64,000 nucleotides of DNA, taken from NCBI GenBank assembly GCA_039621445.1, contig CP154954.1, positions 2,852,001 to 2,916,000 of the forward strand, in the 5' to 3' direction. Positions 7,101 through 10,100 of this stretch are shown here, one piece after another (the first letter of the stretch is position 1; the number at the start of each line of letters is the position of its first letter). The notes under the pieces are model-generated. The model had not been told where the DNA came from. It worked only from the letters and a program-made list of their open reading frames with translations, and did no database searches. Source of the stretch: Euglena gracilis. Lineage: Eukaryota. The position numbers and the translations under genes are program-made.

Positions 7101-10100
7101 CGGCTAATTTTCAAGTTTTTTTTTCTCGTCTACATTTCCCCAGAGGGGTTAATAGTTGGTTGCCAAATCAAAGCATGTTTGGGGGGTATTTCATGTGCCC
7201 CCCCTTTTTTTTAATACCACAACAATAATTTGTTTTTGTTGTTACGGGGTCTTTTTTTACGACGCCCGCCCCGGCCGCCAGTTCCCCTCCGTCCTCAAGC
7301 AGAGCCCCGCGGCGGACATCGTGCGCAGCATTGTCATCGCGCAGGACAAGGCGGAGCTGCTCACGACCAGGCTTCTGTTTTCTCGGAAGACCCTCCCTTT
7401 CGGGTGGTTGGGTGGGTGGGGCCGGGACCAGGGTTTGATACAAGGAGGGCGTACATGGTTTAGGTGGGGGGGTCCCCCCCACCTTCCCCCCCCCTCCTGC
7501 CCCGCAGGGGGGGGTTCCGGACCCCCCCCCCCCCACCTGCCAGGGGGATCCGGACCGACCCTGGGGGAGGTACCCGGGACCCCCCCCCCAAAAGGGTCAA
7601 CTTTTCCTCCGGCGCTTTGCGCCGAATTTTTTTTTTGCATTTCTGGCACATTTTTGCCCAAAAAAAATGCCCAAAATGGCACTTTTGGTCGTTTTGGGGG
7701 GTCAAAAATTTTCGGCCCGGCGCTTCGCGCCGGGCCAAAAATCGGTCACCCGGACCGCGCCACTGTTTAGGTGGGGGGGGTCCCCCCCACCCCCCCCCCC
7801 CTCCTGGCTCACAGGGGGGGTCCAGGTCACCCCCCCACCTGTCCTTATATCGAACCCTGGCCGGGACCCTGTCCCGGGCCAGCCAGGTGGGTGGGTGGGG
7901 TGGAGCACCCCTTTCCCCGAGGGGGGGGGGGGGTCTCAAAATGAAGCCTGTGCACGACCCTCACGGCCCGGCTCCAGCAGAGCGAGGCGCTGCGGAAGGA
8001 GGTCCTCCCTGGGCCGGGCCGCCGGACGCAGCCCGGGGGTCAGCGGCGGGAAAGCGGAAACATCGGGAACAACAAACGGATGAACAGAGCCACTGAAAGA
8101 AGTCTGAACACTGGGTCGGTTTCCAACCGTGTCGTGGGGAAAAAACTCCCAGAATGGATTTTTCTGGGCCTCCGACGCCTTTCGAGCCCAATTTGATTTT
8201 GCCAAGAGGGCTTTGACTAGCCCCCCCCCCCCCAATGCAAAGCCCCCGTTTTTATATTTGGGCGGACATTTCCAGATCATGACCAGGAGTTCTGTTTGGA
8301 TCAGAAAATCAAGTTTCTGCGACCAAAAATATGAATACAATCCCCCCATTTTGTCTAAGTTTGACCATTTTAGGCAACATTCCAGCTGACGATCATTCTT
8401 TTCACCAAAGTGTCAAAATCATGATCTGTCACCAAAATATGAATTTATTGGGATTTTTTTCCCCGTCAGGCTCGACTGTCAACGTTGTCGGCGTCTCCCC
8501 GGAAGTTGTATTGGGCCGGTTTTCAACACGTGCCGAGATGGTGGTGGAGGGGGGGGCATTTCAAACTCCTTCAAAGGCAAAATGCATGTCTCGCTTTTCC
8601 TCCATACCCATCATGAACATGTTGGAGCTTCTCCGCGAAAGCAGTAGGAACCTGCAGGCCACAAATAAGAGGCTTCCGCAGAATTCATGATCAATGTGAA
8701 ATTGCAGCACATCTCGAGGGGTTGATTTCTTCGGCACAAAGTTCGTTTTATAGGATTCTATGGGGAAATTTGATTATTGAAAGCTATGATGAACCCCAAT
8801 AATAACAATAATAATATGAATATAATGTGTCTTAATTTGAATTGTTAGGTACGTCCCCCTTTGATGATACAACATTTTACAAGGTCGAATTAAACAAAAG
8901 CACAAAAAATTGTTGTCCGTTCATTGCAACAAGAATGCCATCCCATCGTCACCCCCCCCCCCCCAGTACTGGCCCGGCAGCAGCGGGCAAACCATCCTTT
9001 TTGACTGGACAGACGCCCATGGGCCCAACCTGCCCCTGGAGCGCATGTGCGAGTATGGCAAGAAGGCGAAGCGGCTCGCGCCGAAGCTGGCGGTGGTACG
9101 CTTCGTCTCCCTTGTGGCCCGGGACTTGCCCCGCCCCCAGGGTGTGACGTGGGTGATTGTGTGATGTGTGCCTCCCAATTTGAGGATCTGCTCCCTTGCC
9201 CACAGAATAGGGGCAAGCATGCCAACCCACACATGCACGTGTGTATGTGCACGTAGTTGCAGTGGATGCAAGCTCTTGACTCTCAAGCTCATATGCAACA
9301 CCGACAACACACAACAAGCACAGCACAACACAATCTCCACAGATCAACATCACATGGACTGATAAGTGAGATTGTGATCAAACCCTGCCCTGCAACAGCT
9401 GTAACCCACTGTTGAACCATGGCTACGAAGGCCGGGGACCCCTGCAGTAGCATTTTGCATCGTGCAAATACGTTGAATCATTCACACTGCTGTTTTCAAG
9501 GTCACTTATTCCACAATGACTGCCAACTGTTATTGAACAATTCTCTGGCTCGTCCGCCGAGCATTGCTTTTAAGGTGATCTTGACTTTAGCTGATTTTGT
9601 CAGGGTGCTCTGCGATGGGCATTTTGGCGGACGTACTTGCACTGCGTGCCGAGGAGCTGGGCCTACACCCTGGCACGGTGGCTGCCTGGGGGCGTCCAGG
9701 CAGGTATTCTGTAGCCAACTGGATGGTTAATGGTGTAGGCGTGTTATTCGTTCTTCGTTTGGGGCTTCTCTCTGTTTCGACAGGCGGTTTTTACCATTTG
9801 CCCATTATTATCTTTTCATTTTCTTCCTTTTTCTTTTCATATTGTCTGTTGTAAACTTCTTTCCTCCTCCCATCATGGTACCTCGTCCCCCCCCCCGGCT
9901 CTTGGCCCCCCGGCATTTGCCCCCCTCCTTTTCACATGCAAACCTGGCCCCCAGAAGTTGGGTTTTGATCTTATATTACGATCGCGGCTTTTTGGCTCGT
10001 TTTGCGTTTGGCCGGCTAAAAATCTGACCATCCAATCTTGGCACCTGTTGTTGTCCCCCCCCACTCTTATTTTCAATTGTGTGCCCGGGCCAAGCGCCCG

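Follow-up and report, generated by a model that had tools for sequence, protein, structure and literature searches.

Where the nonconventional introns of euglenids come from is a question that this 64,000-nucleotide (nt) stretch of Euglena gracilis nuclear DNA (hereafter the window, to which all coordinates refer) raises in a concrete form: inside an intron of one of its genes lies a short repeat (element 1, 7429-7859) with inverted termini and an exact 8-bp direct repeat on either side. An origin of these introns from MITEs (miniature transposable elements with inverted repeats) was proposed in 2014, on the basis of inverted repeats near the intron ends, with CAG/CTG at positions +4 to +6 and -8 to -6, and of junction repeats resembling target-site duplications, at a time when no transposable element was known in euglenids (Milanowski et al., PMC3935182). 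The idea was restated in 2016 (PMC4770533), 2024 (PMC11282704) and 2025 (PMC12501133), while the origin of the introns was called a "mystery" in 2016 (PMC4770533) and "unclear" in 2025 (PMC12501133). Our analysis, which covered one gene and the 64 kb of the window, indicates that 7421-7867 is very likely a hAT-like, non-autonomous cut-and-paste MITE nested in an older intron, and that its family has also been a source of introns.

The sequences on which the family is defined are the following.

7421-7428, plus strand: 8-bp target-site duplication GCCGGGAC on the left side of element 1, identical to 7860-7867
7429-7859, plus strand: element 1, 431 bp, read as a non-autonomous DNA transposon (MITE) from alignment, termini and internal repeat
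7860-7867, plus strand: the second GCCGGGAC of this duplication, on the right side of element 1
58826-59255, plus strand: element 2 (414 bp, 58834-59247) with its duplication on both sides
29003-29187, minus strand: partial relative inside intron 33, similar to the interior of element 1 (73% over 190 columns)

Element 1 carries terminal inverted repeats at 7429-7446 and 7842-7859, and element 2 is flanked by the duplication GTGGACCC (58826-58833 and 59248-59255), which differs in sequence from that of element 1, both being exact (8/8). In both elements, the terminal inverted repeat is 18 bp long, reads CAGGGTTTGATACAAGGA and begins CAGGG (16/18 in element 1, 17/18 in element 2); the terminus of the family can be written CAGGGTTYGATAY. 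The coordinates and repeats of an earlier sequence-only reading, which had described two elements with CAGGG...CCCTG termini and different perfect 8-bp duplications, were thereby reproduced, although its term "near-identical" is too strong for copies that share 86.3% identity over 438 aligned columns (blastn) and nonetheless form one family. Both copies also contain a subterminal direct repeat, element positions 30-105 resembling positions 337-411. In addition, element 1 contains G/C runs, and its predicted RNA fold is closed by a terminal helix in the minimum-free-energy as well as the centroid structure (z -6.95, equalled by 0/100 shuffles). The full elements measure 414-431 bp, and their open frames are low-complexity Pro/Gly runs. 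Overall, the family amounts in the 64 kb to two full copies, a 106-bp derivative described below and the partial relative, and it shows the features by which MITEs are recognized, namely inverted termini, a duplication of fixed length that varies in sequence between copies, and small dispersed copies with no transposase gene.

In a DNA run, the summed word depth was 1.77 million in the bin 7488-7884, compared with ~176-250 in neighbouring single-copy bins, a depth that is not a copy number and that is due in part to poly-C/G. A DNA contig from run X3 covers 7007-7453, and the 5' junction of element 1 is therefore present there; no joint skipping element 1, as a presence/absence difference would appear, was seen among the joints listed (15 of 873). 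A search of metagenomes with the 18-nt terminus returned 36 loci, all of them chance matches, with a blastn hit in 2/36 (each just 20 nt long). The surroundings of the two elements show some likeness: (GGGT)n-like runs occur on both flanks of element 1 (7400-7428 and 7868-7915), and the 5' flanks of the two copies (7400-7428 and 58813-58833) are alike over ~20 nt, the empty sites being partly palindromic if reconstructed. This likeness may reflect a target preference.

The gene in which element 1 resides, and the two introns that matter most here, are as follows.

5858-33364, plus strand: host gene, 38 exons and 37 introns (protein-to-genome alignment, RNA contig gaps)
7365-7955, plus strand: nonconventional intron 3, 591 nt, containing element 1 (protein-to-genome alignment)
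13220-13333, plus strand: nonconventional intron 13, 114 nt, consisting of a 106-bp derivative (13223-13328) plus 8 nt

The product of the host gene is eukprot EG_transcript_694, a protein of 1253 amino acids with no Pfam family. It was aligned to the window with a splice-site-agnostic aligner, and the intron boundaries were obtained by enumerating all protein-compatible pairs. Amino acids 1-1139 aligned with 13 mismatches and 1 missing residue, and exon 10139-10291 is 100% identical to EG_transcript_694, which identifies the window as nuclear DNA of E. gracilis. The alignment of amino acids 1140-1253 was spurious, and 18 pseudo-introns in that part were dropped; these last 114 amino acids were not found after 33364, where AT-rich microsatellites begin. 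Intron lengths range from 114 to 1897 nt (median 559). A GT/GC-AG boundary compatible with the protein exists in 0/37 introns, and the spliceosomal introner was rejected as a candidate on this ground. Reads of one DNA run and one raw RNA run, together with contigs of two RNA-like sets, were mapped over 5900-17800 (85% likeness, 3% share); repeats flooded the joints, so contig pieces and depths were used instead, and they revealed a spliced transcript. Because the contig gaps equal the predicted sums of intervening exons, to the nucleotide for the gaps of 113, 176 and 226 nt in run X16 (contig record 8) and with the same 226-nt gap in run X15 (record 5), the gene model is supported by RNA.

Intron 3 separates exon 3, which ends at 7364, from exon 4, which starts at 7956, with element 1 in between. 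It has termini of its own (CAGGCTTC / GAAGCCTG), an 8-bp helix in register and a 7-nt slidable direct repeat, and the 8 nt before its helix, CTCACGAC, match those after it, TGCACGAC, at 6/8 positions. Without element 1 and one copy of the duplication, intron 3 would be 152 nt long.

The evidence that the family can also supply introns comes from intron 13. Its termini, CAGGGTTCGCTA... and ...GGTATCGAACCTTG, depart from the terminus pattern of the family by 0 and 1 mismatch, respectively. At a tolerance of at most 1 mismatch this pattern occurs at only 7 sites in the 64 kb, and 6 of these form three pairs of ends, belonging to element 1, element 2 and intron 13. For a further terminus match, at 57787-57799, neither a partner end nor a duplication was found. 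The similarity extends inward from the 3' end, as the last 29 nt of intron 13 agree with the end of element 1 at 24/29 positions (reached by 0/2000 dinucleotide shuffles) and an alignment with element 2 pairs the final 67 nt of the intron with the final 76 nt of that element. A global alignment that allows an internal deletion scores 76, against 28.6 +/- 6.1 for shuffled sequences, 0/500 of which reach that value. Past the first 12 nt, the similarity of the 5' half is not significant (289 and 212 of 2000 shuffles score as high).

Intron 13 is flanked by AGGGCAGC (13215-13222) and AGGGCAAC (13329-13336), a duplication preserved at 7/8 positions. The protein is continuous across the intron, and two RNA contigs lack it, since their 226-nt gap equals exons of 2+44+81+99 nt. 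The sole differing base of the duplication is represented in the protein by Asn (AAC) and hence derives from the right-hand copy; because of this, a cut after duplication position 5 fits and a cut after position 6 is excluded. Judged by the protein data alone, the cut could lie at any point between 2 nt ahead of the duplication and its position 6, and whatever the register, the removed length is 114 nt, that is, the element plus 8. Intron 13 is a family derivative that works as a spliced intron. The sequence-only reading had held that an exonic copy would be a ready-made intron; intron 13, a 106-bp derivative plus 8 nt with a 7/8 duplication and absent from the mRNA, is such a case.

How an inserted element could be removed so exactly is suggested by the published code for nonconventional introns of E. 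gracilis, 5'-N3-CDG...CH'G-N5-6|R, which rests on natural, mutated and synthetic introns and whose 3-nt and 5-nt spacers were tested by knock-in (PMC12501133). Transposons played no part in deriving this code, for which introns and synthetic cassettes were used. Element 1 together with its duplication, reading GAC-CAG...CTG-GCCGG|G, fits every term of it, in agreement with the cut positions that had been deduced from the letters, 3 nt ahead of the CAG and 5 nt past the CTG. In the host gene, we considered for each intron all boundary pairs that yield the same protein and recorded the start of any helix of 5 bp or more. A start with a 3-nt distance to the 5' boundary and a 5-nt distance to the 3' boundary was available in 23/37 introns, which is the maximum, compared with 2-4 introns in the neighbouring cells off the ridge on which the two distances sum to 8, and the full published code is satisfied by 22/37. 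Among the 23 introns anchored in this way, a pyrimidine precedes the 5' cut in 18 and a purine follows it in 19; at the 3' junction the corresponding counts are 22 and, for the purine that starts the exon, 23. A pyrimidine|purine (Y|R) step at both junctions is what a duplicated target dinucleotide would give.

These observations suggest the following sequence of events. A transposase supplied in trans would insert the element through an 8-bp staggered cut, and the inverted termini would pair in the pre-mRNA, as they do in the terminal helix of the predicted fold. The nonconventional system would then cut 3 nt upstream of CAG and 5 nt downstream of CTG, as in the published rule. Because 3 + 5 = 8, the element would leave together with exactly one duplication copy, which would bring back the reading frame as it was before the insertion; intron 13 is the example. 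Element 1 might likewise be excised as a unit of its own, and the 8-bp duplication may be causally linked to the 3+5 rule. The rule matches the geometry of insertion and may historically derive from it, but either of the two, rule or transposon, may be the older.

Traces of a duplication are detectable in the host gene as a whole. In the anchored test, which leaves out 14/37 introns, the 8 nt before and after the helix match on average at 3.78/8 positions in the 23 introns, compared with 2.95 when flanks are cross-paired (permutation p 0.0009), and at least 6/8 positions match in 5/23 introns against 3.2% expected. The excess is limited to about -4 to +3 around the boundary, and p was 0.0076 in a first pass whose stricter selection comprised 18 introns. 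Because a long repeat offers an intron more candidate registers, and could thereby ease its entry into the anchored set, a register-free test was also run on all 37 introns. Direct repeats of at least 4 nt were found in 11/37, compared with 2.7% in controls, and the best 8-nt window averaged 5.11 matches against 4.06 (0/20000 permutations reach this value). The excess identity between the nucleotides before CAG and those after CTG, relative to shuffled pairings, that had been anticipated from the sequence was therefore found on the 23 anchored introns and, free of register, on all 37.

The length of 8 bp also emerges from scans that do not presuppose the family. One of them, an unbiased scan with 5 dinucleotide shuffles as controls, looked for inverted termini of 12 nt, whatever their sequence, that match at 11/12 positions or better and have exact direct repeats on their flanks; an exact 8-bp repeat was found in 8 hits and in 0 hits of each shuffle. 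T-runs or AT microsatellites account for four of these hits, and the remaining four all start CAGG: elements 1 and 2 and the sequences at 24950-25266 and 28213-28297. Among 329 CAG...CTG candidates, exact flanking repeats were of length 8 in four cases, 7 in one and 4 in one, and no exact flanking repeat of length 5, 6 or 9-12 was found. On the flank-length counts of both scans, 8 is the characteristic duplication length of CAGG-ended elements here. The two additional elements are the following.

24942-25274 including the duplication, plus strand: second MITE family, 317 bp at 24950-25266, nested in intron 28
28205-28305 with flanks, plus strand: 85-bp element at 28213-28297, nested in intron 31

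The termini of the 317-bp element, CAGGCTTGTGCTTA, are perfect over 14 bp, and its 8-bp duplication, GTTGGGGG, is exact. The 85-bp element has the termini CAGGCCAGAACGGG / CAGGGCAGAACGGG with GTGGGTGG on either side, a duplication that is less certain because its right-hand side merges with a (GGTG)n array.

It is tempting to extend the argument to the intron class as a whole. In this extension, nonconventional splicing would undo, at the RNA level, what one class of DNA transposon has inserted, with cut distances summing to the duplication and Y|R representing target positions 5|6, and most nonconventional introns, ~70% of all E. agilis introns, would descend from CAGG-ended hAT-like MITEs with a decaying duplication. 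We hold this generalization with as much doubt as conviction.

A number of observations weigh against our interpretation, either in its narrower form or in this extended one. Element 1 is nested inside nonconventional intron 3 and is not itself an intron; it is discarded with intron 3 because the copy landed inside that older intron, and among the joints listed (15 of 873) no read shows it excised alone. Element 2 departs from the published code, at the purine only, having a pyrimidine at duplication position 6. Intron 13, though spliced, fails the strict published motif because it ends in TTG, which forms a G-U pair, in place of CTG. In the host gene, a helix of 5 bp or more in register is absent from 14/37 introns, a fit of introns 5 and 26 requires a 3' spacer of 6 nt and thus a sum of 9, which is also the sum in the 6-nt variant of the published code, and 16/23 anchored introns have at most 4/8 flank matches, so that most carry no recognizable duplication. 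Intron 34 (30816-31325) has a 10/11 direct repeat, C[C/T]GTGGGCGGG, which is longer than 8 and is left unexplained by an 8-bp duplication. No transposase-family match was obtained in Pfam for 20 sequences (19 open reading frames of the window picked by eye and the host protein), 19 of which had no match at all and one a weak, sub-threshold hit to DUF2207_C, and no autonomous partner was found in the window. Finally, of the fairly recent mobility that the sequence-only reading had concluded, what stands is one family with perfect, differing duplications; because the two copies differ by 14%, "recent" can be meant only in a relative sense.

The alternative that survives best concerns the name of the superfamily and leaves the MITE and its role as an intron source in place. 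The termini of hAT elements follow the consensus 5'-YARNG, and their target preference is nTnnnnAn. CAGGG stands at both ends of the family, and we presume that the maize Ac/Ds terminus and those of many hAT MITEs begin in this way too; together with the 8-bp duplication, CAGGG makes hAT the probable, if by no means assured, assignment as judged from sequence features. It is nevertheless possible, if less probable, that the family is P-like, Merlin or a member of an undescribed group with 8-bp duplications. The termini of P-type elements, which we take to be CANRG, are also compatible with CAGGG, and the duplications GCCGGGAC and GTGGACCC agree with only one of the two fixed positions of the hAT target preference, as does GTTGGGGG, these being three sites only. 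Merlin shares the host and the 8-bp duplication, and it is the only autonomous DNA transposon that we found reported for E. gracilis (PMC8101967). However, Merlin termini begin GG and the element encodes a DDE_Tnp_IS1595 transposase (PMC8101967), whereas the termini here begin CA and the elements are non-coding; if the boundary is shifted inwards by 2 nt, the flanking repeat is lost, and Merlin was rejected for these reasons.

Far less probable is convergence, by which any efficient nonconventional intron would need CAG...CTG and a helix, and 3+5=8 would be a numerical accident. The common motif is indeed short and GC-rich, and such an accident would sit well with the many anchored introns that have few flank matches and with the unremarkable 5' half of intron 13. 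However, what intron 13 shares with the family goes beyond the motif (the 67 nt alignable with the last 76 of element 2, and 24/29 with element 1 at 0/2000 shuffles), its 7/8 repeat lies in the exact register with a removed length of element plus 8, and all four clean elements with exact 8-bp flanks begin CAGG.

A reversal of direction, in which the introns came first and the dispersed copies are mobilized introns, for example circular RNA copied back into DNA, appears marginally less probable still. It draws on the occurrence of excised nonconventional introns as circular RNAs (PMC11282704) and on the outcome of the window scan, in which no transposase was found. By contrast, a fixed 8-bp duplication around four elements of at least three families is the mark of a staggered transposase cut, and the long inverted termini and subterminal repeats also point to a transposase. 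Moreover, a circle cut by the 3/5 rule would carry 8 extra nt, and the dispersed copies have none inside their termini.

The weakest alternative derives the direct repeats at intron ends from double-strand-break repair, as was done for the eight-nucleotide direct repeats of a newly gained gapC intron in E. agilis, intron 4 of strain ACOI 323 (PMC4770533), but it predicts neither a fixed length of 8 nor the family termini of intron 13, and the same 8-bp flanks surround multi-copy elements with long inverted termini outside exon junctions, which makes it very improbable. The gapC repeats fit well with the 8-bp duplication of the transposon interpretation that we prefer.

Several other introns of the host gene have features of their own. 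Intron 5 (9135-9393) has the ends CAGGGTGTGA... / ...TCAAACCCTG, which are close to the family termini (11/13 at the 3' end), and at its junction codon protein and genome differ (Leu versus Arg or Cys). In intron 16 (16067-16625), the termini TGGCCACCC/GGGTGGCCA are not CAG/CTG, a 7/8 flank repeat is present (GCCCCAGC / GCCCCAAC), and the DNA pile-up is very deep in the bin 16222-16618; this intron may be another element family acting as an intron. An unusual terminus, CCGGGGCGG(G/A), in which the motif takes the form CCG...CGG, occurs in both intron 2 (6762-7279) and intron 28 (24377-25380), which hints at a common family. A repeat family of ~70 nt containing CTGTCAGGGTCCC and GGTACCGGCCAACCTGTCAGG occurs in introns 8, 19, 25 and 33 and upstream of the gene, at the following sites.

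2378-2636: ~70-nt repeat family
10484-10554: ~70-nt repeat family
18206-18313: ~70-nt repeat family
23333-23429: ~70-nt repeat family
29974-30255: ~70-nt repeat family

Beyond the gene, the window contains a tandem array at 35700-38130, with a unit of ~163 bp in at least 10 copies, and at 40000-44700 ~4.6 kb of C/A-rich simple sequence with a GC skew of about -0.9 to -1.0.

Removal of a transposon from transcripts has precedents elsewhere. Maize Ds, a hAT element, is removed through cryptic spliceosomal sites, usually imprecisely. Its splicing as a de novo intron was reportedly found by Giroux et al. in 1994 (as cited in PMC3935182). The family described here resembles Ds as a probably hAT-type non-autonomous element that, when inserted in an exon, is removed from the transcript, and differs from it in that removal is exact by geometry. 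A second parallel is offered by the introners of Micromonas, Aureococcus, dinoflagellates and other organisms (Huff et al., 2016, via PMC11170887; reviewed in PMC11282704), in which DNA transposon termini and a target duplication likewise supply the splice signals, so that the insertion is born as an intron. Introners, however, use the spliceosome at GT-AG-type sites, which are absent from all 37 introns here, whereas the nonconventional system measures from an RNA helix.

The general idea of a MITE origin is not new, and our proposal is the same as that of 2014 (PMC3935182). What is new is a case of a transposon-born intron with a concrete family behind it: multiple copies, perfect 8-bp duplications, an intron derivative, and cut distances of 3+5 that equal the duplication length. 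The term "hAT" does not occur in the texts of PMC3935182, PMC11282704 and PMC12501133, and in the literature searched, which lay outside supplements and subscription papers, we found no report of hAT in Euglena or Euglenozoa and no paper naming, for the origin of these introns, an element family, a superfamily with 8-bp duplications or the 3+5=8 argument. As far as that literature shows, this would be the first hAT-like element reported in Euglenozoa.

For the biology of Euglena, the finding supplies a recognizable transposon family with a working-intron derivative, together with a rule, that the removed length is the element plus 8, and it offers a reason for the 3/5 asymmetry and for the common Y|R junctions. 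It makes the MITE hypothesis testable genome-wide in existing assemblies, as well as by the existing knock-in assay, and it would extend the introner principle to a non-spliceosomal class of introns.

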